Part shown: one piece after another, positions 40,034 to 63,685 of the stretch | Numbering within the stretch: the stretch's first letter is position 1 | Layout: the number at the start of each line of letters is the position of its first letter | Origin: an uncultured Desulfobacteraceae bacterium | Lineage (GTDB): Bacteria > Desulfobacterota > Desulfobacteria > Desulfobacterales > UBA11574 | Assembly (NCBI GenBank): GCA_964410925.1 | Contig: CAYPIW010000086.1 | Location: forward strand, 17,605 to 81,604 | Direction of reading: 5' to 3' | Length of the DNA stretch: 64,000 bases | The notes under the pieces: generated by a model | Databases searched by the model: none | What the model was told of the DNA's origin: nothing | The model's input: the letters and a program-made list of their open reading frames with translations, nothing else | Program-made: the position numbers and the translations under genes

Positions 40034-41761
40034 ATGAAACAGCGATTTCAATGTGTGGCCGGAAGCATCATTTTTTTACTGGTGCTCTGCATCCTGACTA
40101 CCGACGGATATGCGGCAGAACGCGGTATCAATGTTGTGAAGATAATCGACGCCCAGGGGCTGGAAGTCGGTTTATATCACCAAAGCCATGCTTTGGTTAT
40201 CGGTGTCAGTAACTATAATGAAGGATGGCCTCCATTGCCGGGTGTTCAGCAGGATGTCAGGGAAGTATGCCTTGTTTTAAAGGAACATGGATTTAACGTA
40301 GAAACTGTTACCAATCCCACAAGAACGAAGTTGAACCAAGCGTTTTTAAATTTCATCAATCGGTATGGCCAAACCGTCGAAAATCGCTTGCTGTTTTATT
40401 TTGCCGGTCATGGTCATACGCGCAAGCTGGCTTACGGCGAAGATATGGGCTATATTGTGCCGGTGGATGCACCGAACCCCAGTCGTGATCCTCAGGGCTT
40501 CACCGTAAAAGCGATGGATATGCAGGAAATTGAGGTATTTGCCAAACGCATCCAGTCAAAACATGCCTTGTTCATCTTCGACAGTTGTTTTTCCGGTTCC
40601 ATTTTCTCTTTATCAAGGGCGGCCCCCGACAACATCACTTACAAAACGGCCAAGCCCGTACGCCAATTCATCACTTCCGGGAGTGCCGAGGAGAATGTCC
40701 CGGATAAAAGTGTTTTTCGCCAGCAATTCATCGCGGCTCTGAAAGGAAATGCCGATGCGGATAAGGATGGGTATGTCACGGGCATGGAACTGGGAGAATT
40801 CCTGCAGAAACAAGTAGTTAATTATTCCCATAACTGCCAGCATCCACAATATGGTAAAATTCGAAATCCTCATTTGGACAAAGGAGACTTTGTATTCGTC
40901 ATGCCCGTGCCAAAATCACTCTCCCGTCTCGTCCAAAAGCCACCCATTCCCGGTTCAACGGCTGAATCGGTCAACCCGGACACCTTTGAACTTACCTTCT
41001 GGAACTCTATTAAAGACAGTTCCAACCCGGACGATTACCTCGCCTATCTGAAACAGTATCCCAATGGCCGTTTTGCTGCATTGGCCAAAATCAGAGCAAA
41101 GCCAGCTACACAGGTAAAAGCAACCCCGGATACAAGAGTATCTCCGCAACAAATAGATACATGGTTACAGCAGGCCAAAGGGCATCTGGCCACCTCCCGG
41201 TTGACCAGCCCCAGGGGAAATAATGCCCGCGAATTATATCAGAAAGTGCTGAACATAGACCCGGACAATCCGGATGCCCGAGAGGGGCTTCACGAGATAG
41301 CCGACAAATATTTGGACTTGGCAACGCAAGCTCTTGATGAGGAAAACTTGTCCAAAGCAAAGACTTATGTGAACCGGGGTTTGGAAGTCGTAAAAGATCA
41401 TGAGGGTTTGTTGGAGTTGCAGATGGGATTAGTAACAGGGCAACCGGACTCTGATGAGCGATTCTCGCACCCTCCACCAAGTTACCCTGCACATGGTGGC
41501 ATACCCCGTAGCAATCTGAACGGTGTGTGGCAGAGCCAGGATGGAACCATCGTTTTTATAGAAGGTAACAGCTATAGGATCTCTTTAGGCAACTCTGTAA
41601 TGGATATGGGCAGCTACACCTTGCAGGGGAATCAAATTGTCGTCTATAGCATGATGGGCTTAAACAGAATCGTGAGCTACTCTTTGCAGGAAAATAAGTT
41701 AACCTTCTTTGATTATTCGAGTGGTTATCCACTGACCACTGTCTACTATCGTATGAAATAA
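40034..41761 (+). CDS. exported caspase-fold (peptidase C14) protein with TPR-like region
   Basis: Signal peptide. The caspase dyad contexts are FYFAGHGHT and IFDSCFSGS. An EF-hand-like ADADKDGYVTGMELGEF and the motif YLKQYPNGRFAALA follow. It is paralogous to 45503..47056. Confidence 0.8.
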   Translation: MKQRFQCVAGSIIFLLVLCILTTDGYAAERGINVVKIIDAQGLEVGLYHQSHALVIGVSNYNEGWPPLPGVQQDVREVCLVLKEHGFNVETVTNPTRTKLNQAFLNFINRYGQTVENRLLFYFAGHGHTRKLAYGEDMGYIVPVDAPNPSRDPQGFTVKAMDMQEIEVFAKRIQSKHALFIFDSCFSGSIFSLSRAAPDNITYKTAKPVRQFITSGSAEENVPDKSVFRQQFIAALKGNADADKDGYVTGMELGEFLQKQVVNYSHNCQHPQYGKIRNPHLDKGDFVFVMPVPKSLSRLVQKPPIPGSTAESVNPDTFELTFWNSIKDSSNPDDYLAYLKQYPNGRFAALAKIRAKPATQVKATPDTRVSPQQIDTWLQQAKGHLATSRLTSPRGNNARELYQKVLNIDPDNPDAREGLHEIADKYLDLATQALDEENLSKAKTYVNRGLEVVKDHEGLLELQMGLVTGQPDSDERFSHPPPSYPAHGGIPRSNLNGVWQSQDGTIVFIEGNSYRISLGNSVMDMGSYTLQGNQIVVYSMMGLNRIVSYSLQENKLTFFDYSSGYPLTTVYYRMK

Positions 41762-41846
41762 AGGAACAAAACTTGACCGGAAAACTTTCTCAAGCTCTTC
41801 TTAACAGGACCCGCTATTCCTGATTCCATAGAATAGGGAGTTAAGC

Positions 41847-43331
41847 GTGCAACCCGTTAAAGCCGATCGCAAACTGACAGTGTTACTCTTCTCTCTATGG
41901 TTTGTCTTCTCTCTATGGTTTGTCTTCTCAGGCTGTGTTCACTCATTCAAGGCCTTACCTGATGGTATTGATTACCAAAGCAAAGGATATTGTGCTGGTG
42001 CCGGGGATATAGAATTCCTCGTGGATTTAACGTATAAAAATACTCTTGGAAACACCTTACATGAACAGGAAATTTTTGACACGATTTTTAATCTGATTGA
42101 TAACGCCCGCAAGTACATTCTAATTGACATGTTTCTCTTCAATTCATATCAGGGCAAGGCAGAAAAAGCTTACCGCAGGCTTTGTTTTGAGCTCATGACC
42201 CGACTCGTAGAGAAGAAAAAACTGATTCCGTCGATAAAAATAGACTTTATCACCGATCCGGTGAATAATGTGTATGGCGGGGTAAAATCCAAAGAGATCG
42301 AATTAATGAGGGAAGCCGGAATCAATGTTATCTACACGGATCTTAAAAAATTACGTGACAGCAACCTGTTGTATTCCCCCATTTGGAGAATATTCATACA
42401 ATGGTTTGGCAACTCCGACAGCGGGGGTATTTTCAAACATCCTTTCAGCGAAAATGAGCCGGGCGTAACGCTAAGATCATACCTGGCTCTCTTGAATTAC
42501 AAGGCAAATCACCGGAAGGTTGTTTTGACGGATGACAGGGAACAGTGGACAAGTGTCATTACCTCCGCCAATCCCCACGACGGAAGCTCAGCTCACTCCA
42601 ATATTGCCTTGAAGATTACCGGCGACTTTTGTCGGGAGGTCTATGTTGCCGAAAAATCGATTGCCGCATTCTCCCGTGGAAAATTACATGATGTTGTCTT
42701 TGAATATGAGGATAGTGCAAATCCCGTTCAAACCAATTGTGTGTATTTATTCCTGGTGACCGAAAAAAAGATTCAAGACGAACTGATTCGACAGCTCGAG
42801 GGCCTCGGACCGGGTGACCGTGTTCTCATGGCAGTGTTTTACCTCTCGGACAGAGATATTATAAAAGCTTTGTTGAAGGCTGCCCAAGCCGGCGCGGAGG
42901 TAAAAATCATTCTTGACCCGAGCAAGGATGCGTTCGGCCGTGAGAAAAACGGCATTCCCAATCAGCCTGTGGCCTGTGAATTGATGAAAAAATCATGCAG
43001 CAAGATAAAGATCAGGTGGTACCATACCCATGGGGAGCAGTTTCACACCAAACTCACTCTGGTTGAAAAACAGAACGGTAGCGCTGTGGCTCTATTAGGA
43101 TCGGCGAATCTGACGAGAAAAAACATCGAAAATTTCAATCTGGAATTAAATGTCAAGGTCCTCGGAACTTCGTCAGCAGAAGTTATCCGGGAGATAAAGC
43201 AATATCATGATAGAGTCTGGCACAACAAGGGGGGACATTATACCGTTGATTATGAGTTCTATGAGGATAGATCCTTGAGCAAAACCTTTTTATACCGATT
43301 ATATGAATCTACGGGTATCTCCACTTTCTGA
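41847..43331 (+). CDS. phospholipase D-family (HKD) protein, membrane-anchored
   Basis: Two HKD-type motifs are present: HRKVVLTDD...SANPHDGS and HTKLTLVE...GSANLT. There is an N-terminal TM segment. Confidence 0.75.
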   Translation: MQPVKADRKLTVLLFSLWFVFSLWFVFSGCVHSFKALPDGIDYQSKGYCAGAGDIEFLVDLTYKNTLGNTLHEQEIFDTIFNLIDNARKYILIDMFLFNSYQGKAEKAYRRLCFELMTRLVEKKKLIPSIKIDFITDPVNNVYGGVKSKEIELMREAGINVIYTDLKKLRDSNLLYSPIWRIFIQWFGNSDSGGIFKHPFSENEPGVTLRSYLALLNYKANHRKVVLTDDREQWTSVITSANPHDGSSAHSNIALKITGDFCREVYVAEKSIAAFSRGKLHDVVFEYEDSANPVQTNCVYLFLVTEKKIQDELIRQLEGLGPGDRVLMAVFYLSDRDIIKALLKAAQAGAEVKIILDPSKDAFGREKNGIPNQPVACELMKKSCSKIKIRWYHTHGEQFHTKLTLVEKQNGSAVALLGSANLTRKNIENFNLELNVKVLGTSSAEVIREIKQYHDRVWHNKGGHYTVDYEFYEDRSLSKTFLYRLYESTGISTF

Positions 43332-43388: not shown

Positions 43389-44600
43389 GTGACTGTCAAC
43401 GATACTGCAGGTTTTTTGCAGGAGGCAATAATGGTAAACTTTTTACGGAAAAACCTGTCTTTCCTGGCAAATAACCCAATGTTCAAGGGGTTGTCCAATG
43501 ACCAGCTTGAAGAGGTCATCCAAGTGCTGGAAGAAGTGCATGTCAAGGCAGGAGAAATAATAACTATGGAGGGAAATCCCGCATCAGAACTCTATTTCAT
43601 AAAAAGTGGTACCGCAGAAGTTTTTAAGAAAGAACCCGGGATTGATTATGAACATCGGCTGTCAGCACTGTCACCGGGCGACAGCATCGGTGAAATGCCG
43701 GTTCTGGATTGCAAACCTCGTTCGGCTTCTGTCCGGGCGGTTTCGGATTGTTCCCTTTTACTGCTTAAAAATGACAAACTACAATCCCTTTCAGCGGCCG
43801 AAGAATCCGCCTATTCCAAGATCAAAAGCAATCTGAGTTGTGAAATGAGTGAGCGCTTACGTCAGACCAACGAAATGACGGTACGTTCCTTACGAATACA
43901 GCTGGCCGAAGAAAAATCCAGAGTCTCTATGGGAATTCTCATCTGCATGCTGCTGGTGGGAATATGTTTGTATGTGTTCTCTCTACAGGTTATTGCATCT
44001 TGGGCCAAGGCGGCGTCAACAACTACGGTAGTTAGCGTAAACATTATCTTCCTGTTTGCGGCAATGTCTTTTTTTGTTATTAAAAAAGGTGGTTATCCCT
44101 TTAGTATGTACGGTCTCACTACGGATAACTGGCGCCAATCGGTGATGGAGTCTATTCTGTTTCTGGTCCCTATTCTACTATTCTTATACGTTCTGAAATG
44201 GGTTTACCTGACCCGGCTCTCCGGCATGCAGGAATATCCGTTGATATCCCTGGGACAACATTTAAAACTAAGCAAAATCGGCCTCATCATCACTTGTTTA
44301 GCCTATTCGCTGTTCGCCCCTGTGCAGGAATTTATCGCCAGGGGATGCTTTCAATCTTCCTTTCAAAATTTCCTGACAGGCAAATATAGAACTTTGACTG
44401 CCATTGTTATTTCAAATCTTATGTTCAGTATGACCCATCTTCGCATCTCCATCAGTTTTGCTCTGGTAGCCTTTATTCCCGGACTTTTCTGGGGGTGGCA
44501 ATATGGACGTCATAAAACGCTCATCGGAATTTCAATTTCACATATTATCATCGGCCTATCCGCTTCTATTTTCATTGGGTTCCCGGGAGTTTTATCATAA
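43389..44600 (+). CDS. cyclic-nucleotide-binding domain fused to a CPBP (CAAX/Abi) intramembrane protease domain
   Basis: The cNMP-binding beta-roll is NPASELYFIKSGTAEV...GDSIGEMPVLDCKPRSASVRA. About 6 TM segments follow, with CPBP-like motifs PVQEFIARG, MFSMTHL and ISISHIIIG. An alternative start is MVNFLRK at 43431. Confidence 0.65.
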   Translation: MTVNDTAGFLQEAIMVNFLRKNLSFLANNPMFKGLSNDQLEEVIQVLEEVHVKAGEIITMEGNPASELYFIKSGTAEVFKKEPGIDYEHRLSALSPGDSIGEMPVLDCKPRSASVRAVSDCSLLLLKNDKLQSLSAAEESAYSKIKSNLSCEMSERLRQTNEMTVRSLRIQLAEEKSRVSMGILICMLLVGICLYVFSLQVIASWAKAASTTTVVSVNIIFLFAAMSFFVIKKGGYPFSMYGLTTDNWRQSVMESILFLVPILLFLYVLKWVYLTRLSGMQEYPLISLGQHLKLSKIGLIITCLAYSLFAPVQEFIARGCFQSSFQNFLTGKYRTLTAIVISNLMFSMTHLRISISFALVAFIPGLFWGWQYGRHKTLIGISISHIIIGLSASIFIGFPGVLS

Positions 44601-44640: not shown

Positions 44641-45390
44641 CTAACGCCAGCCGCCGGGCAGTATGGTGAAGTCGGAAAATGTGACTTCAACCGGTTGCGC
44701 GCTCCAGGTTTTAACAATCATCCCAACACGATTCAGATTATCTTTGGCCGTGGTCAGAATACTACCGAGATCCTGCCATGCGTCCGCCCCGGCCAACCGA
44801 ACCCAGAACCGAAACGTGGTTCCTGTCTTTGCAACCCGAAGCAAGCCGGAGGTTCCTTCATATTTGATCAGAAACTCACCCGCGTTGTCTGGGATCTTTG
44901 CAAGATCGTAATGAGCACCAGTACAGTCATCCCGATAAGACCCGGAAATAACAACGTCATTGGTCCCGGCCGGACCAAAATAAAGGGCGTATGCAGGTTT
45001 GTCTTCGTTGCCATTCCATAAGACTATACCCACATGGCTGTTTCCAACACGTTCCGGCATCTGAAATCTGACATGGGCGATCCAGGTTTCCCGCGGCGGT
45101 GCTTCAACCGTCAACATGGGGGCCAGTCCCCGGTCGCAGTCCCAAATGTTATGTTCCCCGTTCGCCTTCATAAGCACAGTGTTACCAAGAATCTGATGCA
45201 TGGAGTCGCCCTGGGGATCACTCCACTCGAAATCGGAGAACTTTATCCCGGAAAAGACTTCCGACTCACCGTTTTCCAGCCGGGTGAAATAGGACGGCAT
45301 CCATTGCCGGATTCCTGCTACGCCCACCGCCACCTTAAAATCAGAAAAACTAACACTCACGGGATTGCCCGCCCAGGTCTTGCTAATCAT
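44641..45390 (-). CDS. beta-sandwich repeat protein, likely the detached C-terminal part of the upstream caspase gene
   Basis: 249 aa. Residues about 55-249 repeat the C-terminal extension of 45503..47056 (SDPQGDSMHQILGNTVLMKANGEHNIWDCDRGLAPMLTVEAP vs SNPQGDGMYKIDGKWIHMRANGGRNIWDCNRGQAPMLTVKAP). Confidence 0.55.
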   Translation of the reverse strand: MISKTWAGNPVSVSFSDFKVAVGVAGIRQWMPSYFTRLENGESEVFSGIKFSDFEWSDPQGDSMHQILGNTVLMKANGEHNIWDCDRGLAPMLTVEAPPRETWIAHVRFQMPERVGNSHVGIVLWNGNEDKPAYALYFGPAGTNDVVISGSYRDDCTGAHYDLAKIPDNAGEFLIKYEGTSGLLRVAKTGTTFRFWVRLAGADAWQDLGSILTTAKDNLNRVGMIVKTWSAQPVEVTFSDFTILPGGWR

Positions 45391-45502: not shown

Positions 45503-47056
45503 TCACCCAGGCTCTGTCCATGTTTGGGTTACGGGTGCTTTTACCGTCAGCATGGGCGCCTGTCCGCGATTGCAGTCCCAGATATTGCGCCCTCCGTTGG
45601 CCCGCATGTGAATCCACTTGCCATCAATTTTATACATACCGTCTCCCTGTGGATTGCTGAACTGCCAGGCATTGGCGGAGACACGGCCCTCTCCTGTTTC
45701 CTGGATAATCTTTTCTGAGGCCGAAGCCGAATCTTTTGGAGATATTGCAGATAGTTCTGCTCCTGAAATGAATAAATTACCCAGCTCTTCCTGGGCCGAG
45801 ATTTTAAAGGAAGGTTTCGTTTGAGAAAGTGCTTTTGGTGCCCATTCGTCCTGTTTGCCCCCCCCCGCTTCAGAGATTTCCTGAGCGGACGATATTTGTA
45901 AGGGAATTGCCTGTTCTTCGCTCTTTACCTCCGGCGCCACAACTTTTCGTTTTTCTTTAAGATCGCCAGTTTTCCGTGCATTGAGAGACTCGATCTTTTT
46001 ATGTGCAACGGCCGCAAAATTACCATTGGGATATTTTTGAAGGTAGCCCTCAAAATCAGCGGGGCTTTCACTGGCAGCCACCGATGCCCAGTAAGTTATT
46101 TCGACCATGGCGTCCTCACCGGTTGGAACCACGGAAGACAGACGTGCCGTTTCACTTTCCGGCGCCAGGTGGCCGGGCAAAAGAAAAACAAAGTCGCCCC
46201 GGTCAAAATCAGGGTCACGGAGCTTACCGTAGCGGGGGGTTTGGGCCTGCTCCGTTAAATTTGTGATCCGGTCGGAGAGATACATGCCCATCTCACTGGC
46301 GGTAAGGTAGCCGTCTCTGTTGGCATCGGCCCGCTCTTCGCCCCGTATTCCGCGCAGGAACAACTTTCGAAACGCACCGTCGTCGCTAACGGTTTGATTG
46401 GCGTCACCCGAACTGAGAAACTGGCGGACAGGCAGGGTAGTTGCCCGGGTAATCGAGGCCGGAACGGCTCCGGCACGGGCTTCAGAAATGGTGCCAGCAA
46501 AACACCTGTCGAAAATGGCGAATACATGTTTGGATTCTGCCAGCCGCATGAACCCGGCAAAGTCACGCATATGGATTGCTTTCAACTTAAACTCCGGTGA
46601 GATCGGTTGCGGTGCATCGACCGGAACCAGAAAGCCTTCACCCTTGATGGTGTGTCCATGGCCGGCAAACCAAAGAAACAGCCTGGCCTCCGGATCGGAC
46701 CCCTTGATCGCAAAAAAATTCTTCAGGCTTTGTTGAAGTTCATTTGATTTAAGATCTTTCTTGAATATAACCTCAAATCCGCGGTTCTCCAATTCGGTTG
46801 CCACCTCACGGGCATCTGATACGGCATTATGAAGCGGAGGCCATCCGCTCGTATACGTATCGATACCGATAACCAACGCATAGCTTTTATCATAGAGTTT
46901 AAGCGTCTCGGTCACCGGGGCGCTGATGCTATCCTCCGCTCGGATTTTTACGATGATCCCCCGGTCTTGAGCATGAGCAGCCCGAAAGCCGATAGAGGCG
47001 ATCCATACAACCATGGTCAATAACAAGCCAACTCTGTTTAAACTCAACATCTGCAT
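45503..47056 (-). CDS. exported caspase-fold (peptidase C14) protein, C-terminal domain truncated
   Basis: Signal peptide. The dyad contexts are LWFAGHGHT and IFDRCFAGT. ADANRDGYLTASEMGMY and YLQKYPNGNFAAVA follow. The frame ends inside a beta-sandwich repeat. The start is placed at MQMLSL. Confidence 0.75.
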   Translation of the reverse strand: MQMLSLNRVGLLLTMVVWIASIGFRAAHAQDRGIIVKIRAEDSISAPVTETLKLYDKSYALVIGIDTYTSGWPPLHNAVSDAREVATELENRGFEVIFKKDLKSNELQQSLKNFFAIKGSDPEARLFLWFAGHGHTIKGEGFLVPVDAPQPISPEFKLKAIHMRDFAGFMRLAESKHVFAIFDRCFAGTISEARAGAVPASITRATTLPVRQFLSSGDANQTVSDDGAFRKLFLRGIRGEERADANRDGYLTASEMGMYLSDRITNLTEQAQTPRYGKLRDPDFDRGDFVFLLPGHLAPESETARLSSVVPTGEDAMVEITYWASVAASESPADFEGYLQKYPNGNFAAVAHKKIESLNARKTGDLKEKRKVVAPEVKSEEQAIPLQISSAQEISEAGGGKQDEWAPKALSQTKPSFKISAQEELGNLFISGAELSAISPKDSASASEKIIQETGEGRVSANAWQFSNPQGDGMYKIDGKWIHMRANGGRNIWDCNRGQAPMLTVKAPVTQTWTEPG

Positions 47057-47361
47057 CCTCCCTGGTTGCGGCCTTCTCAACGGTTTCTTATTACGGCAAA
47101 GCTCTGCCAAATATCCTAACCATATATAAAAGAACCTGCTTAAATATGGAAAAAAGTCAAGCGGTTTTGATTAAATTAAACCGGGGGAAAAAATATTTTC
47201 AGGCCACTTGATTACAATTATAAAATGTATTCTTTATTGACGTTTAAATATTAGATGATGTAGATTGTTTTTATGATATCGTGCTGGTATTCATATCGCG
47301 TAATTTGCTGATATCATACTATATTTATACAGAAAATCCTGCAGGAAACAAGGCGTATCAA

Positions 47362-48711
47362 ATGAAGGATGGGTCTGTTTTAAGAAAACTCTGTCAAGAG
47401 TATGGCAATACTGTATCCTGGACGGTGCCGGCCGCTCTTTTCATCCTCATTTTCATGTCTCTAAATACACTTGCCGCTTCCGGCGAAATCACCGGATCGG
47501 ATCTTTTGAAAAAATACGCACCTGTTTTATACTTCCATCCCGAAGAAAAAGTGTATCCCTGGGGAATCAACAGCATGCTATATAATGCCGATTTGAAAAA
47601 GATGAGAAATAAACGGACAGTTCCTATGCCGGTTGGCTCTAAAGATCTATTATCCAATAACAGTGATAAGCTCTATCTGGATATGCGAAATATAGATCCC
47701 TATCATGACGCTGTAAATTCCTTAAAAAGTATAGATACCACCTTTAAAAGATTTCCCTTTAAAGTTTGCGGAAGACGGATAGATCCCCAGAAAAATTCTA
47801 CTCATATTGTACTCCAATACTGGCTGTTCTATCCCTTTAACGACTGGCATAATGATCACGAAGGGGACTGGGAACTCCTCCAAATCCGTTATGCCAAAAA
47901 TAGACACGGACCCGACCAGGTCACGACTTCGCACCATCACAGTGGATCTGTGACCGCATGGGATAACATCAGCAAGATAAACGGAACCCATCCTAAAGTT
48001 TTCGTTGCCAAAGGAAGTCATGGAAACTGGCCGGCCGGCGGCAATCACGCCGTTGGGAAAATATGGAGAAAAGTGGGCGTTTTCCGGGATAAAACTTCGG
48101 AAAATGGAATGGTTTTGTATCCTGAAGATATTATGGACACCGTTGGTGGAAAAAAACAAAAATACATACTTGAGGACATCAGTGATATGCCGGGATCAAG
48201 CTGGATATACTGGAACGGAAGATGGGGAGATGTCAAGGTTTTATTTTGGGGCTATAGAGGCCCGGCAAGCCCGGGAGTGCAGGATAAATGGAAGGACCCC
48301 ATAAAATGGGGAAACAGTCCGGCGAAATCGTCGTTTTGGGTATACTTCGGTAGTCCGGGTTACCTGCATATCTATGACCCTCACGGCAACCATGTTGGCG
48401 TAACTGAAGAAGGCCGGAAAGATACAATCGATGAAATAGAAGGAAATATACCCGGCACTTATTTTTACGTGCCTTCTTCTGATAAGGTCCCGGAAGCATG
48501 CGCATGGATTAATACTTCAGAAAACCTTCGATTTGAAATAAAGGCCACGCGTTCAGGTAACTTCAATCTTTGTTTCGACTCTGATCCCAGGACTGCAGGA
48601 CAAAATCAGGGGGAAATTGCCATTCATGTCACATATAAGGATGTTAAGATCACGAAAGGCGGTATCCGCCAAGGCGAATGTACCGTCGGAAAAATTAAGC
48701 GAACGGCTTAA
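47362..48711 (+). CDS. Vps62/DUF946-like secreted protein
   Basis: The start is set at MKDGSV, ahead of the signal peptide. YAPVLYFHPEEKVYPW and NDHEGDWELLQIRY resemble the Vps62 family. The C-terminal part looks like a beta-sandwich. Confidence 0.45.
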   Translation: MKDGSVLRKLCQEYGNTVSWTVPAALFILIFMSLNTLAASGEITGSDLLKKYAPVLYFHPEEKVYPWGINSMLYNADLKKMRNKRTVPMPVGSKDLLSNNSDKLYLDMRNIDPYHDAVNSLKSIDTTFKRFPFKVCGRRIDPQKNSTHIVLQYWLFYPFNDWHNDHEGDWELLQIRYAKNRHGPDQVTTSHHHSGSVTAWDNISKINGTHPKVFVAKGSHGNWPAGGNHAVGKIWRKVGVFRDKTSENGMVLYPEDIMDTVGGKKQKYILEDISDMPGSSWIYWNGRWGDVKVLFWGYRGPASPGVQDKWKDPIKWGNSPAKSSFWVYFGSPGYLHIYDPHGNHVGVTEEGRKDTIDEIEGNIPGTYFYVPSSDKVPEACAWINTSENLRFEIKATRSGNFNLCFDSDPRTAGQNQGEIAIHVTYKDVKITKGGIRQGECTVGKIKRTA

Positions 48712-48718
48712 AGCCATT

Positions 48719-53958: not shown

Positions 53959-54153
53959 GGCCCCGTCGCCATTGAAAAAATGATATCCCCGTAATTTTTA
54001 AGATCTGTCTGGTGGATTCCGACGAAAAATTCATAACCGATAATGATAATGTATATTTTACCGCATATATGTGAGCTATACGATTCATATATGGGATCAA
54101 AGCTGTACCAGCATGACCAAAATTGAAGATTTCTAAAAAGAATGCCTCAATAC

Positions 54154-55572: not shown

Positions 55573-55589
55573 GCAGCCTCCTCATCTTT

Positions 55590-58166
55590 TTATTTTTCGT
55601 GAAGCAGGTTTAGAAACTGCCGGGCATCCTTATTGTCCGGCTCACGATGCAGGACCTCTTTATATATGATTTCCGCTTTTGACGGCTGACCGGACAGATA
55701 GAAAGCAGAACCCAGATGTAACAGATATTGTGAGTTATCAGGATCAAGCTTCGTAGCCCGGTGATAGTTGAAAATAGCCTTTTTCAATTGGCCGGTTTCA
55801 AGATAACAAAAGCCAAGCCAGAAGCGTGCTTCGGCCTCCCGTGATTTCTCTTCTTTTGCGATGTTTAAAAGTTTAATTGCTTTAGGGTAATCCTTTTCCC
55901 GTACTGCCGAGACCCCCTGGATAAAGGCATCCAGAGTAGATTTTATGTCGGCTTTAAGTGTATCCGGTTGAGTTGCAGTGGATTTTTGTTCGGTTGTTGC
56001 AGCCTCCACTTTTCCCGAAGCAGGGGGTTGTGCCGCAAGGGTAGAAATTATCAGGCTTTTTTCATTTTTTGATGCGGATTCAGTTAATGGGGAAATTGCG
56101 ACCGTCTGATTCTGACCTTGATAATCTTCCGAAGTCAGGATTGTGATATGGGCTGTTTTATGCCCCGGATGCGAACTGAAAATACGAACATCCCGGGGAT
56201 TACCAAAATAGTTCAAATCGATTTTCAATGATAAAAGGTCCATATTCTTTGATACGATTCCATTTTTCAGGTTACCAATGATCTGGTTCCCGCCGATCAG
56301 TGCAGGCGCCTGATCCAAAAAAACGCCATTTTGGTTATAGCTGATGTCATTTTTAAGCACTTTGGCCGGAGAGCGAACAAGCTTTATGCCGGTAACCGAG
56401 TTATAGGCGATCCGGCAGCCTGTGATACGCGCTTTAGCCATATCCACCGCCTCAATTCCATTGGTTTTATTTCGGTAAATGGTCAGATCATTCAAATGCG
56501 GAGCTGCGTTGCTGCCTTCAATCCGTATTCCGGTAATGCACTCTTTTACCGTACCACCGGATATTTCCGGAGAGCTTTCGATAATTCGAAAGCCGATCTC
56601 GGAACCGTGCACTTCAAAATGAGACAGCCGGCATTTCTCCGAAGACCTTTCGAAAATGATTCCCCCCCAGTTTTGGTCTTTATCCGCCGCTAAAAAAAGC
56701 ACAGGCGCATTTTTTTCCCCGCTGACATCCAATGTCCCCCGGAGAATCAAACGGGACTTTGGGTCAGCCTGGACCATTACTCCCGGGTGTATGGTAAGTA
56801 TGGAACCCGCCGGGACAATGACATCACCTTTCAAACAGTAGGGATTGGCACCGGAATGCCACACCGAATCCTCAGCAAGACTTCCTTGAACCGGTGTAGG
56901 ACCCGGCGGCACAGGAGTAGCGGGAATACCCACATTCGTCTGACTGTTGTTTCCGGCTAGGTCGGCCGCAATAACCCGGTAAAAATAACGGGTATAATTC
57001 TCCAGGTCTTTATCTTCAAAACGCGTAAATTCAGTGGTATGAATTTTTTCATATCCGGAAAGCGGGGTAATGCTCCGCCATATGCTGTAGCCGGCAACAT
57101 CGGCTGCAGTAGATTTGTTCCACCGAAGAACTATTTTTTGGCTGCCCGCTATGGTTTGCAGACCGGTAGGAGGGTCCGGCGGAGCTCCGTCGACATTTAC
57201 GAACCCCAGAGTGTCTTCCCATCTGCAAACATTATTCCAGTCGTCTGACAGCCGAACCACAATCACTGCGTCACTAAAGGTATCATTATGCCGGACAAGA
57301 CAGGAGCCGATATAAGTTCCCGGAGTTTTTTCCTGCATTTCAACAGCAGTTTTCCAGGGGGCAATGCTAAAAGTCGCTTTCAATCCGGCAGTGCCTTCAA
57401 TACCCACCTGAAGGCGCTCTCCCTTTCCAAGAGTTCGGTTCATGCCGTCATGGACCAAATTGGATATTTTGGGAAAGGATTTGCCCTTTAGGTTAGCGGA
57501 AGGCGGAATTGTCTCCACCGCAGCCTGGCAAAGTTTATTGATTGTGGTAATAATGTGGTACCTGGACAGATCAAGTGCACTGGAAGCCGCCGCAATAATA
57601 GCCCCAATGGGAGTTGTCGGAATGCTGCCGCTTCTTTGAATCTCCTTGTGTTTTACGGACCACAGCACCCGCCGGGTTTCTGCATCAATCATTTTAACCT
57701 CAACCGCAACGGTAAAAGAAGAGTAAATCCCCGCATAATAAGATTTAAATTCCGTTATCCGGCCAATGATCAGTGCGTCGGAGGCAAGGAGTTCTCCGGT
57801 TTTCGCAGGATCGATATTTTCAAAAATATTTTGCGGGTTAAAATTTTTCAGATTGGCATTTATGGCGCTCAGTTCGATATCCTTATAAGCCAGGGAACTG
57901 AAATTATTGTAAAACAGGCGTTGCAAAAGAACAGATGCTTCCTTTTCTTGGGTCAGGTTTTCAAAAGGAAGGATGGCCACAGACAAGGGCCGGTCTTTAT
58001 TATAATCCGGGGCAACAAATATATTTTCAACAGGGATTTTACGCTCAAGTGCCCCCTGAACGCGATCTATTTGTTCACTCAACCTGCTGCCCAGGCAGGC
58101 AAACAGCAAAAAACAGATACTGATTGAAAATACAGCTGTCAGAATCAGTTTGCAGAAGGATTTCAT
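55590..58166 (-). CDS. multidomain lipoprotein: DUF799-like + FN3 + right-handed beta-helix (PbH1/NosD-like) + TPR
   Basis: The start is set at MKSFCK with lipobox LLFAC. The DUF799-like region is VAILPFENLT...IIGRITEF. The FN3 domain is PPTGLQTIAGSQKIVLRWN...YFYRVIAADLAGN. Repeated NGI/TGI beta-helix turns follow, then C-terminal TPRs. Confidence 0.65.
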   Translation of the reverse strand: MKSFCKLILTAVFSISICFLLFACLGSRLSEQIDRVQGALERKIPVENIFVAPDYNKDRPLSVAILPFENLTQEKEASVLLQRLFYNNFSSLAYKDIELSAINANLKNFNPQNIFENIDPAKTGELLASDALIIGRITEFKSYYAGIYSSFTVAVEVKMIDAETRRVLWSVKHKEIQRSGSIPTTPIGAIIAAASSALDLSRYHIITTINKLCQAAVETIPPSANLKGKSFPKISNLVHDGMNRTLGKGERLQVGIEGTAGLKATFSIAPWKTAVEMQEKTPGTYIGSCLVRHNDTFSDAVIVVRLSDDWNNVCRWEDTLGFVNVDGAPPDPPTGLQTIAGSQKIVLRWNKSTAADVAGYSIWRSITPLSGYEKIHTTEFTRFEDKDLENYTRYFYRVIAADLAGNNSQTNVGIPATPVPPGPTPVQGSLAEDSVWHSGANPYCLKGDVIVPAGSILTIHPGVMVQADPKSRLILRGTLDVSGEKNAPVLFLAADKDQNWGGIIFERSSEKCRLSHFEVHGSEIGFRIIESSPEISGGTVKECITGIRIEGSNAAPHLNDLTIYRNKTNGIEAVDMAKARITGCRIAYNSVTGIKLVRSPAKVLKNDISYNQNGVFLDQAPALIGGNQIIGNLKNGIVSKNMDLLSLKIDLNYFGNPRDVRIFSSHPGHKTAHITILTSEDYQGQNQTVAISPLTESASKNEKSLIISTLAAQPPASGKVEAATTEQKSTATQPDTLKADIKSTLDAFIQGVSAVREKDYPKAIKLLNIAKEEKSREAEARFWLGFCYLETGQLKKAIFNYHRATKLDPDNSQYLLHLGSAFYLSGQPSKAEIIYKEVLHREPDNKDARQFLNLLHEK

Positions 58167-58248
58167 CCCATAACCAGTGAATGTTAATTGATTCAGACTC
58201 GCAACAACCACATCCATGCCTGCAAATTTGTTCAGTTATCGGCAGGGA

Positions 58249-59067
58249 CTAGCGTGCCGGAGTCGGCATTCGAGCCAGGGCATAAAAACATTTGCCGGCA
58301 TGGCTATAGGCATGCCGGCAAATGGCAGCACCTGTTAGAACAACTTCAGCCGTGGTCTCAGAAAGGTTTTGAGACATGGAGCCGGTATTTTTAGAACTTG
58401 TTTTTTGAAGGACATTGTATCGGGCCGAAAGCTTAAAGGCCAGGTCGGCTCTGGCCTGACGCTCGGCTTCCTGCCAGGCCTCACCCGGTTTAATATAACT
58501 TGGAGCAGTGCCGATCCCGTATACATATTCAGCAGGTGATTTCGGTTCTTTGACCCATTCAGGAGGCTCATCAGAGTTTATATCGACCAGACGGTTATCA
58601 ATTTTATTTATCATTTGTTGTAGCAAAGATCCATCCGGACAGATTGCACAAAGAGCGATAACCCCACTTCCCAAACGATATTCGTGAACAATCTGAAGAT
58701 GTTTTTCCAATTGGGATGCCCGATCCTGCCATCCGTTTTCTATCACATAGGATGCTGTCAGACTTTGGCTATGGGTTTGGGTGCCGGCCCATGCCGCTTT
58801 AATAAAAACTTTTTGGTTTTTCGCCATATTCGCGGCACCGCTTTTCACAAGCATTTCTTTCTGGCATTTTTGGTCAAGATATATTCCACTGTACCCATAA
58901 GCAAACCGGCACCCATTAACATTGGGCTGTTCAGCATACCATCCGGGTACCATCAAGATTCCAGACAGATTTGATTTCTCGATTGGTCGCGTAAGGTCCT
59001 GCCGGGGACTTTGACAGGAAATCAGGGATATTATCAATGCAACTGAAAAAAGGACCCGCAGGGTCAT
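58249..59067 (-). CDS. LPP20-family lipoprotein
   Basis: The start is set at MTLRVLFSVALIISLISCQ (lipobox). The LPP20-like C-terminal region is PPEWVKEPKSPAEYVYGIGTA...AERQARADLAFKL. Confidence 0.55.
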   Translation of the reverse strand: MTLRVLFSVALIISLISCQSPRQDLTRPIEKSNLSGILMVPGWYAEQPNVNGCRFAYGYSGIYLDQKCQKEMLVKSGAANMAKNQKVFIKAAWAGTQTHSQSLTASYVIENGWQDRASQLEKHLQIVHEYRLGSGVIALCAICPDGSLLQQMINKIDNRLVDINSDEPPEWVKEPKSPAEYVYGIGTAPSYIKPGEAWQEAERQARADLAFKLSARYNVLQKTSSKNTGSMSQNLSETTAEVVLTGAAICRHAYSHAGKCFYALARMPTPAR

Positions 59068-59352
59068 GCAGTGGTGGCATCCTCTAATCTTTACAAATTG
59101 CCGATAGCAACTATATTTTTTAACTGTCATCGGATATTTAAATGGGTCTCTGTACACAAAGCCGACCCTGGGAGATTGATCAAACGTTAGTTCTATGCAT
59201 CTGGAAATCTGCTGTTCAGACTTTCCTGTAAGAAGTGCAACAGGCAAAACTTTTAAATTAGGGTGCCCGTTCATTTTATTCAATGAATCATACGGGCACC
59301 CTACCCTGAAAGCGATTTGCATAGAACTGTGAAAAGAACTCCGGTAATGAGT

Positions 59353-59949
59353 CTATTCTTCGGTAAAATCGAGTTTGTCGAGTTCTTTTTGTAACTCGTC
59401 AAAGCCTTGTTTTGCTTTGAATTCATTATAAAGGGCTTGCTCATTTTTAACCAGCTTTTTGGTCTGATCGTCGATTTGCTTTTTAAGTGCCTCTGCATTT
59501 TCTATGGGCCATAGAGCTAAGCTGTGCCAGGTGCCGTCCGGACATACTTCACGCTTTACGATTTTGCAGCCGTAAAGAACATGGGAAGCAATCGCTTTGC
59601 TTACCGACTCAGAGAACTGGAGCGCCTGGGCTCCTTCTCCAATGCCGGACTGCTGCATAAAGTCTTTCATCATGGTTTGAACTTTGACCCGGATGGCCAT
59701 AACCACTTCATCCCGGGCCCGCTGGTCAGCCGTTTTCTTTGAAAGGGCCGCCATTTGCATTTTGGCGAGCCCGCTTCCGTAAATACCGTCTTCAGCGGAA
59801 GGCGGATTTTTTTCCCATTCCGGGATACACTGAGCCTGTTCGGCAGGCCCTGCAGGACGAGGCTCCGGGGCTGTTGCACAGGCCATAATTAAAAAACAGC
59901 CCATAATAATAATTCCCAATACCAAAGTCCTTTTTTTTCCGTTCATCAT
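59353..59949 (-). CDS. LPP20-family lipoprotein
   Basis: 198 aa with lipobox IMACAT and PEWEKNPPSAEDGIYGSGLAK...ADQRARDEVVMAIRVKV. Confidence 0.6.
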   Translation of the reverse strand: MMNGKKRTLVLGIIIMGCFLIMACATAPEPRPAGPAEQAQCIPEWEKNPPSAEDGIYGSGLAKMQMAALSKKTADQRARDEVVMAIRVKVQTMMKDFMQQSGIGEGAQALQFSESVSKAIASHVLYGCKIVKREVCPDGTWHSLALWPIENAEALKKQIDDQTKKLVKNEQALYNEFKAKQGFDELQKELDKLDFTEE

Positions 59950-60010
59950 TTACGTCTCCTTTTTATCTTCTGGTTAACAGGTTAAACTAAAATAAAAATT
60001 TATCACATAT

Positions 60011-61147
60011 TCAGAGACCACGATAAATTTTAGATCGACTGAACACTCTCTGAATATAGTCCTGGGTTTCCTTATACGGAAGTTTTTTTCTCAGGGCCAT
60101 ATGAATATCCTCCGTAGTCATGCTTTGGGCTTTTTTCACTGCCGGTTTCAGATTGGTTTTTCCGGTGAGTGCCCTTGCAACATTGCCAGCTCCGGTGTTA
60201 TAGGCTGCAACCGTCAGTAAATAGGCAATCCCCGGGTTTTCAATTCCTGCGAAATACACATTTTTCGTCAGGTCCAAATAGGCCACTCCCAAATTGATAT
60301 TGTTTTCTGGATTGTACAGAAATTCGGCTGAAGGTTTCTTATCCTCATTATAAAGATGCTTATACGCATCCCGTCCGCCTGAGACGGGGACAAGTTGCAT
60401 TAAGCCATAGGCAGGAACGTGGGAACGGGCCATGGGATTAAAATATGACTCGGTATGAATGAGGCCGAATACAATACTGGGATCTATGTTCCGTTGTTTG
60501 CAATATTTAAGGACGATGGGTTTATATCGGTCAGCACGAATTTTCAGGTGCTCCGGCACCATCTGGACTTCAACGGATACGACTCTTTTGGGCGGTGCGG
60601 ACGGTTGAGGTATGAGTTTTGAAGATGTTTTCAACTTTTCTTTAAGACGCTCTTGGACAAATTTATCAACGTTTTCCGGGGAGAGGTCTTTTTTACCGTC
60701 AACAGAAATCTGACCGGTAAGCAGATTTTTGCCTGTGGGCCAGCGGTCCGACATCATGCGTTTGAGTTGGCGTTTAATTTTTTCACTGGCTGCCTGTCGC
60801 GGATTTTTTTCATTCTCCGGGATAAGGACTTCAAGGGAAATCTTGCCTGATTTAAAATCAACCTGGCTTCGACTTTCTTTATCGGCCCCGTAATCAACCC
60901 AGACCTTTTTGCTGGAACCGATAAACTCTCCCCACTTGGATCTCACTTCGGCCTGATAGGCGGCGTAATCCTTTTCCTGTTCGTCGATGAAAGAGCTGAA
61001 TTGCTCCTTTTCTTGTTTAACAAAAGACTGGAAATCCTCATCGGAAGCAAAAATTGGATTGGCAACCGCCAAAAACAGGAAACAGGATAGAATTGTGAAA
61101 AGAACATCTTTTATGCTGCGCATGGTGCCCTCCCGGTATTTTTTCAT
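60011..61147 (-). CDS. membrane-bound lytic murein transglycosylase (MltC-like)
   Basis: Signal peptide with an MltC-type N-terminal domain. The SLT catalytic region is GLIHTESYFNPMARSHVPAYGLMQLVP...AAYNTGAGNV. Confidence 0.75.
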   Translation of the reverse strand: MKKYREGTMRSIKDVLFTILSCFLFLAVANPIFASDEDFQSFVKQEKEQFSSFIDEQEKDYAAYQAEVRSKWGEFIGSSKKVWVDYGADKESRSQVDFKSGKISLEVLIPENEKNPRQAASEKIKRQLKRMMSDRWPTGKNLLTGQISVDGKKDLSPENVDKFVQERLKEKLKTSSKLIPQPSAPPKRVVSVEVQMVPEHLKIRADRYKPIVLKYCKQRNIDPSIVFGLIHTESYFNPMARSHVPAYGLMQLVPVSGGRDAYKHLYNEDKKPSAEFLYNPENNINLGVAYLDLTKNVYFAGIENPGIAYLLTVAAYNTGAGNVARALTGKTNLKPAVKKAQSMTTEDIHMALRKKLPYKETQDYIQRVFSRSKIYRGL

Positions 61148-61477
61148 AACTTAATGCATTATAGGAGATCAATCTAACTGTCAAAACAGCGACCCGGCAA
61201 ACGTAGATTAAAATTCATATTTCCCGGACAATACAACCAAAGCTTTTTTGAAATCAAGTGCATATACGATGCAACCATCTTGCATTCAAATTTTCAATAT
61301 GCTAAGTGTAGTTATTGTTATTATAGGTGATTTCATTCTTAACCGGATGATATCAATGTATATATTAAGTTTTAGTAAAAAATGTCAACATTAATTCATT
61401 CTTCCAAGGACTCCCTTTGATTCGCACAGATTTGCAGAACTTAAAGGCGATTGTGATGGTAACGAGTTCTGCGAGCT

Positions 61478-63685
61478 ATGATCGGAAGGCTCATGATTTT
61501 CCAGAATTTTTTTACAAGATTTAGATCATCATTTCCCGAACAATATAAAAAATGGTATTCAGGATTGGCAGTTGCTTTCCTGATCTCCTTTTTGATTGTA
61601 ATCTTGCAGCGGTTTTCCTTTATGCAAATTCTGGAGGCCAAAACTCTTGATTCCAGATTCTCAATAAATGATCCCCCTGAACAAGTATCCGAGGATATCA
61701 TTCTGGTGGGAATAGATGATTCGAGTCTGAAATATTTTTCCGACAACGGCATTTCCTGGCCCTGGCCAAGGGATTTTTATGCACACCTTTTAGGCTATTT
61801 AACGGATTCGGGCGTAAAATCCGTAATTTTTGATCTTTTATTTTACCAGCCGGATATCGATCGGGGTGAATCTGATGCAACCGAAACAGATAAAGCCTTT
61901 GCCGGTGCCATTCACGCAAACGGCACCGTCGTCCTGGCAAGCCAACTCACCCAAGAGAACCTTGGGTCTCACTTCGATCTTTCAAGATTCTATCTCCATC
62001 TCAACAAAAAAGATAGCATCACCTTGAACCCCTATAATGGCATTCTTGCTCCAATAGAATCCTTTCTCCATGCGACTCGCCATTTGGGTATCGTGAATGT
62101 GGAACCTGATGCGGACGGGATTATCCGGCGGGTCCCTTTAATATATCCGTTCAATGGCCGTTTTCTGCCGCAGATAGCGGTTAGCGCGTTTCTGTCTTCC
62201 AAAAATAAACCGGTTCCTTTGCGACTGTCATCAAAATATCTGGATATCGGCCAAACACAAGTCCCCCTCGACAATGCCGGTAACTATCTTATTCACTGGT
62301 ATGGTCGCCAAAGCACCTGCCAATTCATCCGATGTGTTCCTCTCGCGGCGGTGATTCAGTCGGCCTCTGCCGTTCAGGCGGGGGTAACGCCACAGCTTTT
62401 ACCGAATGTTTTCAAGAACAAATTCGTTATTATCGGTGTGACCGCTGCGGGGCTTATGGATTTAAAGTCCACACCTGTCTCAGACATTCATCCGGGCATG
62501 GAAATATGGGCCACAATTCTCCTCAACCTGATACGGAACGATTTTGTTAAGCACAGCAGCTTACTTCTGAACTCGTTACGGGTAATGATCGTCACTTTTG
62601 GTGTATTCCTGCTTATCACAAAAATTCCCGGCATTGCATCCCATGTTCTGGTTCTTCTCATGACGCTCCTGGTTGGGGTTGAAACGGTTTGGGCGTGGCG
62701 GTTTCATCGGCTGGCCTTAAGCTTCACCATGCCCATATGCGGGTTAATGGTATCCTATTTAGCCCATACGTCCCTTGGGTATTTCATTGAAGGGCAGGCA
62801 AAAAGAAAAATAAGCAAGGCCATGACTCGCTATCTTCACCCGGACATTGTGCAACAAATTGCACGCGACCCGGAACAGGTTAAAATGGGTGGGCAGGAGG
62901 TGGAAGCAACAGTGATGTTTTCAGATATATACGATTTTACGACTATTTCAGAAAACTTTTCGCCACATGAGCTTGTTGCCCACCTGAACCGTTATTTTTC
63001 CGATATCAGCAGCTTTATTCTTGACCACGGCGGCATGCTGGACAAATATACCGGTGACGGAATTATGGCCATTTTTGGAGCGCCGCTTCCAAGGGAGGAT
63101 CATGCCCTTCTGGCATGCCGCGCGGCACTTGCCCATAGGAATTTTAGCAGTAAACTGGGTAGCGGAAAGGAGTTGTCCGTCTCGGATCGGTTCCACAGTC
63201 GCACTCGACTCGGAATCCATTCCGGCAATATCGTTGCCGGAAATATTGGGTCCGAACGGCGAATGGACTATACCGCAATCGGAGATACCGTAAACCTGTC
63301 CGCCCGGCTGGAAGGAGTTAACAAAATTTACAAAACCAAAATCATTCTCAGCCATGCCACCTATAAACGGATTAAAAATGAGTTCATTTGCAGGGAATTG
63401 GATTTTTTGAAGGTAAAAGGGAAAACAACCCCCACCCGGATTTACGAATTAATCGCAAATCGGGAATTTTCAGACCCTGAGCAGTTTCAATGGATAGCAA
63501 ACTATCACGAGGCCCTTTCCCTCTATCGTCAGGGAAACTGGGGAAAGGCCGGCACCCTTTTTGAATCACTGGTCCATTCGGCCTGTCCCGATCCGGCCAG
63601 TGTGGTAATGTTGGAGCGTTGCGGGCATTTAATTAAAAATCCGCCCCGGCACTGGGATGGAATTATAAAGCTTGAGGTGAAATAA
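61478..63685 (+). CDS. CHASE2-sensor class III adenylate/guanylate cyclase
   Basis: The CHASE2 region is IILVGIDDSSLKYF...WPWPRDFYAHLL...IFDLLFYQPD. TM segments follow, then the cyclase core ATVMFSDIYDFTTISE...KYTGDGIMAIFGAP...GDTVNLSARLEG. Confidence 0.85.
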   Translation: MIGRLMIFQNFFTRFRSSFPEQYKKWYSGLAVAFLISFLIVILQRFSFMQILEAKTLDSRFSINDPPEQVSEDIILVGIDDSSLKYFSDNGISWPWPRDFYAHLLGYLTDSGVKSVIFDLLFYQPDIDRGESDATETDKAFAGAIHANGTVVLASQLTQENLGSHFDLSRFYLHLNKKDSITLNPYNGILAPIESFLHATRHLGIVNVEPDADGIIRRVPLIYPFNGRFLPQIAVSAFLSSKNKPVPLRLSSKYLDIGQTQVPLDNAGNYLIHWYGRQSTCQFIRCVPLAAVIQSASAVQAGVTPQLLPNVFKNKFVIIGVTAAGLMDLKSTPVSDIHPGMEIWATILLNLIRNDFVKHSSLLLNSLRVMIVTFGVFLLITKIPGIASHVLVLLMTLLVGVETVWAWRFHRLALSFTMPICGLMVSYLAHTSLGYFIEGQAKRKISKAMTRYLHPDIVQQIARDPEQVKMGGQEVEATVMFSDIYDFTTISENFSPHELVAHLNRYFSDISSFILDHGGMLDKYTGDGIMAIFGAPLPREDHALLACRAALAHRNFSSKLGSGKELSVSDRFHSRTRLGIHSGNIVAGNIGSERRMDYTAIGDTVNLSARLEGVNKIYKTKIILSHATYKRIKNEFICRELDFLKVKGKTTPTRIYELIANREFSDPEQFQWIANYHEALSLYRQGNWGKAGTLFESLVHSACPDPASVVMLERCGHLIKNPPRHWDGIIKLEVK

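Follow-up and report, generated by a model that had tools for sequence, protein, structure and literature searches.

Caspase-fold genes behave as single-gene presence/absence polymorphisms beside conserved signalling and envelope genes in a Desulfobacterales lineage

The bacterial C14 homologues known as orthocaspases carry a PF00656 domain with a His-Cys dyad, occur in multiple copies, combine with TPR, Sel1, WD40 or FGE-sulfatase modules and are abundant in Deltaproteobacteria (PMC3501461). Asplund-Samuelsson et al. (2012) read the N-terminal hydrophobic helices of the C14 homologues that they surveyed as signal peptides, and one Trichodesmium protein combines C14 with CHASE2 (PMC3501461); some orthocaspases of cyanobacteria carry a fused DUF4384 domain (PMC7475262). 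Here we analyze three C14 genes that share the general features of the orthocaspases, which we call Casp1, Casp2 and Casp3. They lie at positions 40034-63685 of a 64,000-nucleotide stretch (the window) from an uncultured Desulfobacteraceae bacterium (contig CAYPIW010000086.1), among genes for cyclic-nucleotide (cNMP) signalling and envelope proteins. An initial annotation had proposed that all these genes form one functionally linked assembly. The synteny comparison to which that annotation itself had pointed shows Casp1 and Casp3 absent or replaced while their neighbors stay, and the region is instead probably a mosaic of a vertically inherited backbone and separate caspase genes, not one system. 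The three caspase genes are best explained as having been added separately in particular lineages, or lost differentially; within the conserved backbone, Casp1 and Casp3 are each polymorphic in presence or absence as a single gene.

To compare the locus, we used exact-protein look-ups and homologue searches, which placed the window among uncultured Desulfobacterales, and a genome-collection scan anchored on the PLD-superfamily lipoprotein gene that follows Casp1, which gave 80 loci that were compared with all window proteins. Casp1 (40034-41761, + strand; 575 aa) lies between this PLD gene (41847-43331, + strand) and a B12/radical-SAM gene (37903-39651, + strand) directly upstream of the region. 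Relative L016 retains the backbone of response regulator, histidine kinase, radical-SAM and PLD genes at 87-91% nucleotide identity (PLD 88%, radical-SAM 91%) and is without Casp1, which falls inside a 2.13-kb indel (39698-41830) in whose place L016 has 461 bp. In L015 (PLD 91%), the gap between the radical-SAM and PLD genes is occupied by another caspase, 46% identical to Casp1 and on the opposite strand. The interval (window 39652-41846; L015 2127-4590; L016 9423-9943) was therefore seen in three states: Casp1 on the + strand, a different caspase on the - strand, or the 461-bp spacer. Sequence common to pairs of these three was confined to a promoter-like block of 43 bp and a block of 92 nt near the PLD gene. 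The 43-bp block (39897-39939) is 95% identical in L015 and is also where the alignment to L006 begins. It holds most of a putative promoter 5′ of Casp1 (39919-39947, + strand; TTGACA, 17-nt spacer, TATATT) that matches 11 of 12 consensus positions and is the best such site in the region, the total number of such sites being no higher than shuffled expectation. Because this site lies in a block common to L015 and L006, Casp1 appears to lie downstream of a promoter that was there before it and 5′ of the PLD gene. Mobile-element scars were sought at the Casp1 junctions, and neither meaningful repeats nor a target-site duplication was found.

Farther from the window, L018 (PLD 80%) has the PLD gene followed by a stand-alone cNMP-binding domain, 72% identical to the N-terminus of the window's CPBP protein, and no caspase within 18 kb, and L017 (PLD 75%) has neither a cNMP-binding gene nor a caspase. 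None of the remaining 75 PLD loci, at 41-55% identity and from many phyla, has a caspase, Vps62 or DUF4384 gene nearby; we rejected PLD as a caspase partner on this count. Conversely, a 73% identical Casp1 homologue in L009 has no PLD gene nearby, its neighbors being a cyclase-TPR gene, a GAF histidine kinase and a PilZ gene. The whole left block from Casp1 to the MscS-type channel gene was retained in one close relative only (L006-L008).

On the right side of the region, we used a metagenome scan anchored on the DUF4384 protein, which yielded 12 loci at 67-86% identity. Casp3 (52753-53958, + strand; 401 aa) was absent from all 12. At the DNA level, the flanks 52375-52576 and 54163 onward lie only 81-93 bp apart in L099, L100 and L105, forming an empty site; Casp3 is therefore the sole gene of a 1.59-kb lineage-specific segment (52577-54162, strand not applicable) that replaces ~85 bp. 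Marks of a mobile-element origin were looked for in this segment, and no flanking repeats, target-site duplication, tRNA or integrase genes were seen. An 85% identical orthologue of Casp3 resides in an unrelated neighborhood, with TrkAH, a toxin-antitoxin pair and polyketide synthase genes, and homologues at 57-60% identity are likewise found in unrelated contexts, one of them having a phage integrase and another caspase as neighbors.

In L096, L101 and L104, the slot downstream of the DUF4384 operon is filled with unrelated cargo, in the manner of a variable hotspot; L101 has a 455-aa protein there, with no function assigned. We also observed other contents of the same slot. L096 (11595-20035) has a 1010-aa WD40-caspase, a 330-aa caspase and unknown proteins there, and L104 (11820-18341) encodes an AAA_21/AbiEii-type ATPase together with an unknown protein of 801 aa.

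Casp2 (open reading frame [ORF] 45503-47110, - strand; 45503-47050, or 515 aa, counted from Met21) is a broken gene. Its intact orthologue in L006-L008 is a protein of 1103 aa with a signal peptide, a caspase domain, a linker and three tandem ConA/DUF1349-like repeats. Three-frame translation of the window recovered orthologue residues 1-512 in one frame, followed by a stop, and residues 818-1103 in another frame; ~300 aa have been deleted and the frame has shifted. The neighboring 249-aa ORF (44641-45390, - strand), which has neither a Pfam match nor a signal peptide, is the detached ConA/DUF1349-like C-terminus of the ancestral Casp2, at 87% identity to L006 residues 818-1103. In addition, the Ser that adjoins the catalytic Cys (S184 position) is replaced by Arg in Casp2 (FDRCFAG), a residue found in 1/51 family sequences against Ser in the other 50. 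The adjacent Vps62-like gene (47281-49204, + strand), whose product is predicted to be exported, is broken as well: its two overlapping ORFs (47281-48711, and 48617-49204 of 195 aa; Vps62 31.4 bits vs a cutoff of 22.1) both match an intact 615-aa orthologue in L006, and the frameshift lies near 48650, after 'KITKGG'. We rejected an assembly artefact as the cause, since both defects appear as identical, gap-free sequence in four independent assemblies. Relaxed selection, the signature of a pseudogene, was not seen either. The ratio of nonsynonymous to synonymous substitution rates (dN/dS) between the window and L006 was 0.15 for Casp2, 0.066 for its caspase domain and 0.10 for the 249-aa ORF, so that the damage to Casp2 is recent or the truncated protease is still in use. 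Casp2 and the Vps62-like gene together are conserved in L006-L008 only.

All three proteins are readily recognized as C14 peptidases, scoring about threefold above the Peptidase_C14 (PF00656) cutoff of 21.4 bits (Casp1 68.9, Casp2 61.9, Casp3 65.6 bits). Their translations contain FAGHGH/FDSCFSG, FAGHGH/FDRCFAG and WSGHGF/ADTCHAG, respectively. H126, D183 and C185 are invariant across a 51-sequence alignment of Casp1/Casp2 relatives, as are H224, D273 and C275 across 41 relatives of Casp3, and in both alignments the invariant Asp stands two residues before the catalytic Cys. An Asp at this position is the acidic S1-pocket residue of MALT1 and metacaspases. This residue, together with the DTCHAG motif of Casp3, would fit peptidases directed at Arg or Lys. 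The three proteins look catalytically competent, their His/Cys contexts being intact as the initial annotation had them, and, in line with that annotation, all three are predicted to be exported: n-, h- and c-regions are readable at each N-terminus. Casp1 begins MKQRFQ, followed by a hydrophobic stretch and GYA/AE; Casp2, from Met21, begins MLSLNR, followed by a hydrophobic stretch and AHA/QD. The N-terminus of Casp3 runs ...LVPFGC, and its Cys16 is conserved in at least 90% of 41 homologues, in keeping with a lipoprotein-type peptidase whose putative lipobox (PFGC) is non-canonical at position -3. AlphaFold2 predicted N-terminal helices for Casp1 and Casp3, the Casp3 model being poor.

Casp1 consists of the signal peptide, a paracaspase-like caspase domain (~50-290), a helical 'YPNG' hairpin (315-355), a TPR-like region (371-468) and a C-terminal beta domain (497-573). 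Structure modelling of the caspase domains, which the initial annotation had suggested, gave a usable result for Casp1, with a mean predicted local distance difference test (pLDDT) score of 78 and values above 85 over most of residues 50-180 of the caspase domain; the Casp3 model (pLDDT 60) was too poor to use. In a Foldseek comparison with the PDB, the Casp1 model showed a caspase fold, with MALT1 paracaspase as the top match (E 3e-12, template modelling score 0.70 on target, identity ~20%), followed by Geobacter GSU0716, plant metacaspase-9 and animal caspases 3, 8 and 9, all with a probability of 1.00. The Casp1 sequence alone also retrieved MALT1 from the PDB (phmmer, 4e-6), and that of Casp3 retrieved Arabidopsis metacaspase-4. 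In Casp3, the lipobox Cys16 is followed by a PEGA-like beta domain and a metacaspase-like domain with DTCHAG.

Both families are very large. The first ~330 residues of Casp1 recur at 45-60% identity in Acidobacteriota, Desulfobacterota and Proteobacteria, with more than 3000 matches, and are joined to C-termini of the FGE-sulfatase, WD40, TPR or Lcl_C type. Hundreds of proteins share the catalytic domain of Casp3 at ~75% identity, their N-termini being of the PEGA, ankyrin, HEAT or MORN type. Each window caspase belongs to one of these two families, in which a strongly conserved C14 module is coupled to interchangeable binding modules (here TPR plus beta domain, ConA-like repeats, and PEGA). 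Six distant Casp1-family loci and four Casp3-family loci have no partner gene in common; distant family members stand alone, amid housekeeping genes or beside insertion sequence, integrase or restriction-modification genes (L108-L112). A plasmid database was also tried as a source of Casp1-family neighborhoods and proved uninformative, with six distant matches only.

We then took a uniform hidden Markov model census of all fetched loci, with the 80 PLD-anchored loci (1.32 Mb), which are not taxonomically matched, as background. A second C14 gene occurred within 10 kb in 4/11 independent caspase-anchored loci, compared with any C14 gene in 1/80 background loci (Fisher p = 6e-4). The three C14 genes of the window, which lie within 14 kb, likewise exceed this background of 1/80 unrelated 20-kb loci, and caspase paralogues co-localize generally. 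A class III cyclase was present in 2/11 caspase-anchored loci vs 1/80 background loci (Fisher p = 0.038), and DUF4384 in 1/11 (L107) vs 0/80. The association of cyclase with caspase is suggestive, against a background that is not taxon-matched. The cluster of three in the window is best explained by a general tendency of high-copy families to accumulate together in variable intergenic slots.

Around the caspases, the ORF listing and Pfam scans of the window proteins located every gene that the initial annotation had named, each where it had placed it within 40034-63685, and all the domains concerned (CHASE2 and Guanylate_cyc, cNMP_binding and Rce1-like, MscS and cNMP_binding, GAF and GGDEF, PLDc_2, Vps62, DUF4384) scored above Pfam gathering thresholds; its picture of a neighborhood rich in envelope and second-messenger genes thus holds. 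The PLD lipoprotein (PLDc_2 93 bits) has two HKD motifs, with H222/K224/D229 and H400/K402 invariant in 25 homologues and a GC lipobox consensus. As a side observation, the dual-HKD family to which it belongs keeps a single architecture and both invariant motifs at 41-55% identity over many bacterial phyla (window, L015-L094), and its members include metagenome-assembled genomes (MAGs) of the candidate phyla radiation and MAGs labelled Woesearchaeota. Next to it lies the gene for a membrane protein in which an N-terminal cNMP-binding domain is joined to a CPBP/Rce1-like intramembrane protease (43389-44600, + strand; cNMP_binding 65.7 bits, Rce1-like 44.1 bits), 90% identical and syntenic in L006; PLD and cNMP-binding genes are linked in the window, L006 and L018. 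The MscS-type channel with a C-terminal cNMP-binding domain (49263-50744, + strand; MS_channel_2nd, MS_channel_3rd, cNMP_binding) shows PF00924, PF21082 and PF00027 in the order of the bacterial cyclic nucleotide-gated (bCNG) architecture, and its gene adjoins the DUF4384 operon in L100, L103 and L105. The GAF-GGDEF protein (50824-51867, + strand; motif GGDEY; GGDEF 118.9 bits, GAF 62.5 bits) is encoded by a gene that L100 lacks and that in L103 lies immediately next to the DUF4384 gene. We also observed that the 'intergenic' stretch 51881-52576 is conserved at 80-88% nucleotide identity in relatives in which the proteins encoded on either side reach only 67-86% identity. Within it is a hydrophobic ORF of 69 aa (52042-52251), which may be a real small membrane protein.

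Pfam and synteny further delimited a five-gene envelope operon (54154-61147, - strand), which encodes, in order of transcription, an MltC-like lytic transglycosylase (60011-61147, - strand), LPP20 (59353-59949, - strand), a 357-aa LPP20-like protein (58249-59322, - strand), a protein with GNA1162-like, fn3, beta-helix and TPR parts (55590-58217, - strand) and the coiled-coil DUF4384 protein (54154-55572, - strand). The third of these has no Pfam match and owes its label to weak similarity to its neighbor (24% identity, E 3e-4, to the LPP20 protein); it has an internal lipoprotein-like start (MTLRVLFSVALIISLISC), so that translation probably begins 3′ of the ATG given in the ORF listing. The operon keeps the same order at 61-90% identity in L096, L097, L098, L101 and L104. 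A CHASE2 class III nucleotidyl cyclase gene (61478-63685, + strand; CHASE2 170.8 bits, Guanylate_cyc 83.9 bits) is divergent from it in all five relatives with enough flank (79-86% identity). Overall, the stable units are the PLD and cNMP-binding genes, the CHASE2 cyclase with the five-gene operon and, in some relatives, the MscS channel and GGDEF genes beside this operon. No further C14 gene was found in the first 40 kb of the window, no Rfam family in the region and no tRNA gene in the whole window. The GC content of the region is unremarkable, and the marks of a mobile element or genomic island that we looked for (an integrase in the region, a tRNA target, flanking repeats, deviant base composition) were absent.

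Several observations weigh against the mosaic. The left block Casp1-PLD-CPBP-Casp2-Vps62-MscS is conserved in order in one relative, L006-L008, at a synonymous divergence (dS) of ~0.42, with Casp1 79% identical. In the window and in L006, Casp1, PLD and cNMP-CPBP are probably co-transcribed, because the genes are co-directional, are separated by gaps of 86 and 58 bp and have a single strong promoter-like site upstream. Class III cyclases lie beside Casp1-family genes in 2/7 independent loci (L009, L107) vs 1/80 of the background (p = 0.016); in L107, DUF4384, a CHASE2 cyclase and a caspase form an apparent operon. Non-orthologous caspases recur round the same backbone in L006, L015 and L096, which could reflect function rather than chance. 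Finally, the relatives are all metagenome contigs, and each event can be read as a gain or as a loss. A rival reading unites the caspases, the CHASE2 cyclase, the DUF4384 lipoprotein operon and the two cNMP-binding proteins, channel and protease, in one envelope signalling and proteolysis pathway, in which, for example, an exported caspase would cleave a periplasmic partner or the CHASE2 domain and the cyclase would then make cNMP that gates the MscS channel and the CPBP protease. The gene string in L107, the cyclase-TPR gene beside the Casp1 homologue of L009, the probable co-transcription of Casp1 with PLD and cNMP-CPBP, the cyanobacterial fusions of C14 to DUF4384 and to CHASE2 (PMC7475262, PMC3501461) and the cyclase enrichment (p = 0.016-0.038) favor such a pathway; the latter, however, was measured against a background that is not taxon-matched. 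Nevertheless, we consider it unlikely. Close relatives with the entire signalling backbone do without Casp1 or Casp3, the Casp3 orthologue is located elsewhere, Casp2 is broken in the window, and neither a cyclase nor a cNMP-binding or DUF4384 gene was found in 4/6 distant Casp1-family loci or in any of the four Casp3-family loci. The L107 cyclase is only 23.5% identical to that of the window and not orthologous, so that the association in L107 arose independently. On proteobacterial plasmids, moreover, CHASE2 genes pair with FecR-domain genes (4/4) and not with caspases, none of which was found near them. The expectation that DUF4384 and CHASE2 recur with caspase homologues stands for rare domain fusions in the literature and for the one distant gene string in L107, and did not extend beyond these.

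We describe that string here in its own right. L107 (1792-9626) is from the cable bacterium Ca. Electrothrix sp. GW3-4 (CP147990), where a DUF4384 protein of 236 aa, a CHASE2 cyclase and a Casp1-family caspase are encoded in succession. The DUF4384 ORF overlaps the start of the cyclase by 8 bp, the caspase follows 169 bp further on, and a C14+DUF4384 fusion and an FHA-cyclase are nearby. On the four plasmids (L113-L116: Microvirga, Eleftheria, Leisingera, Burkholderia), the CHASE2 receptor gene is directly preceded by an overlapping or near-abutting FecR-domain gene, itself preceded by a response-regulator gene in 2/4.

The variability of the slots is also what would be seen if the caspases were cargo of hotspots, a fast-turnover, polymorphic conflict repertoire serving kin discrimination, antagonism, or anti-phage or anti-predator functions at the cell surface, with the signalling neighbors incidental. 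The same slots do hold different cargo (another caspase in L015, two caspases in L096, an ATPase and the 801-aa protein in L104, an FtsK-like ATPase, three caspases and Lcl_C in L006), some homologues lie beside a phage integrase or a restriction-modification island, conserved catalytic modules with variable binding modules resemble diversifying families, and caspase paralogues cluster together. Set against this, PADLOC and NCBIfam recognized no known defence system, a cytoplasmic role in abortive infection fits poorly with the export signals, and neither a partner NTPase nor an EACC1 or immunity gene is present in the window. The junctions are without integrase, tRNA or repeat hallmarks, many distant homologues sit amid housekeeping genes, and dN/dS values of 0.15-0.26 indicate ordinary purifying, not diversifying, selection. 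We therefore regard a conflict repertoire as quite improbable. Upstream of Casp1, we also noted that L006 (1825-9721) carries genes for a 746-aa FtsK/SpoIIIE-like ATPase, which has a partner ORF of 172 aa, and for an Lcl_C protein, besides three additional C14 genes, where the window has radical-SAM and two-component genes.

Under the mosaic reading, the backbone would comprise the radical-SAM gene, the PLD lipoprotein with the cNMP-binding CPBP protease, the cNMP-gated MscS-type channel, the GAF-GGDEF protein and the five-gene operon with its divergent CHASE2 cyclase. Casp1 would have inserted after a promoter already in place and ahead of the PLD gene; Casp2 and the Vps62-like gene, both now broken, would have been placed between the CPBP and channel genes, and Casp3 between the GGDEF and DUF4384 genes. 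Each caspase would be exported by Sec, Casp3 being lipid-anchored, and would work on its own, periplasmic or at the surface, as a cysteine peptidase directed at Arg or Lys whose variable module picks the target. The CHASE2 cyclase, together with the cNMP-binding channel and protease, may then constitute a backbone cNMP pathway independent of the caspases.

More speculatively, the exported caspases of Desulfobacterota might be extracytoplasmic partners of CHASE2/class III cyclases and DUF4384 proteins, such that cleavage in the envelope switches on cNMP, which gates the MscS channel and the CPBP protease, a 'protease-activated receptor' pathway whose caspase is swappable between strains. A swappable component would explain the recurrence of non-orthologous caspases round the same backbone. 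We hold this to be a long shot; if the link to CHASE2/class III cyclases were true, it would be the first extracytoplasmic signalling role for bacterial caspase homologues. The mosaic that we favor carries a different lesson. The crowding together of thematically related domains is not in itself proof of a system; here the signalling and envelope genes are stable and the caspases come and go. Our analysis documents two very large caspase-fold families, predicted to be exported, with a conserved catalytic core and interchangeable binding domains, and shows that in a Desulfobacterales lineage such genes behave as single-gene presence/absence polymorphisms.

How the locus stands to described systems can be seen most directly for defence. 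Consistent with the initial annotation, which did not take the region for a classical cytoplasmic defence operon, PADLOC on 17 proteins, together with NCBIfam, recognized no known defence system, and its matches were at the domain level only (caspase, the cNMP domain of PycTIR, the PycC cyclase domain, a DrmC-type PLD). EACC1-associated caspase conflict systems (Kaur et al., 2020; NF047832) resemble the window in their caspase effector module with variable partner domains, and resemble relative L006 in its FtsK-like ATPase beside extra caspases. They differ in that the window has no EACC1 or NTPase partner and its proteins are predicted to be exported. We rejected an assignment to the EACC1-type caspases: Casp1, Casp2 and Casp3 scored 60.3, 37.2 and 86.1 bits against a cutoff of 140 bits, with no EACC1 partner among the neighbors. 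Pycsar shares with the window a class III-type cyclase domain and cNMP-binding membrane proteins. However, the window cyclase is a CHASE2 membrane receptor outside any two-gene operon with the cNMP-binding genes and is kept with a housekeeping-type lipoprotein operon, and where Pycsar has PycTM or PycTIR as effector, the candidates in the window are an MscS channel and a CPBP protease; we rejected Pycsar because the PADLOC matches were partial and at the domain level, and 11-18 kb separate the cyclase from the cNMP-binding genes.

In the two-gene FecR + CHASE2 modules, as in the window, a CHASE2 receptor is conserved with genes for exported accessory proteins, and in Electrothrix the DUF4384 gene takes the overlapping upstream position held elsewhere by FecR-domain genes. 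The window differs in having no co-directional partner upstream of the cyclase, its DUF4384 gene being the last of a divergent operon, and hhalign gave no signal of homology between DUF4384 and FecR in very small alignments. The protein encoded at 49263-50744 has exactly the architecture of bCNG channels and may be gated by cNMP; such a channel gene is linked to the cyclase in some relatives only. As for the caspases themselves, we found no biochemical or functional characterization of these two sub-families, predicted to be exported, in the searched literature. Compared with cyanobacterial orthocaspases, the catalytic domain of Casp1 is nearer to the MALT1 paracaspase (PDB 3V4O, 3UO8) in both sequence and fold, and it shares with MALT1 the motifs YAGHG, VPVDAPNP and D-x-C; the Asp before the catalytic Cys would be consistent with P1-Arg specificity as in MALT1. 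MALT1 resides in the cytoplasm under the control of dimerization and of its death and Ig domains, whereas Casp1 combines a related catalytic domain with a predicted signal peptide and with TPR and beta-domain partners.

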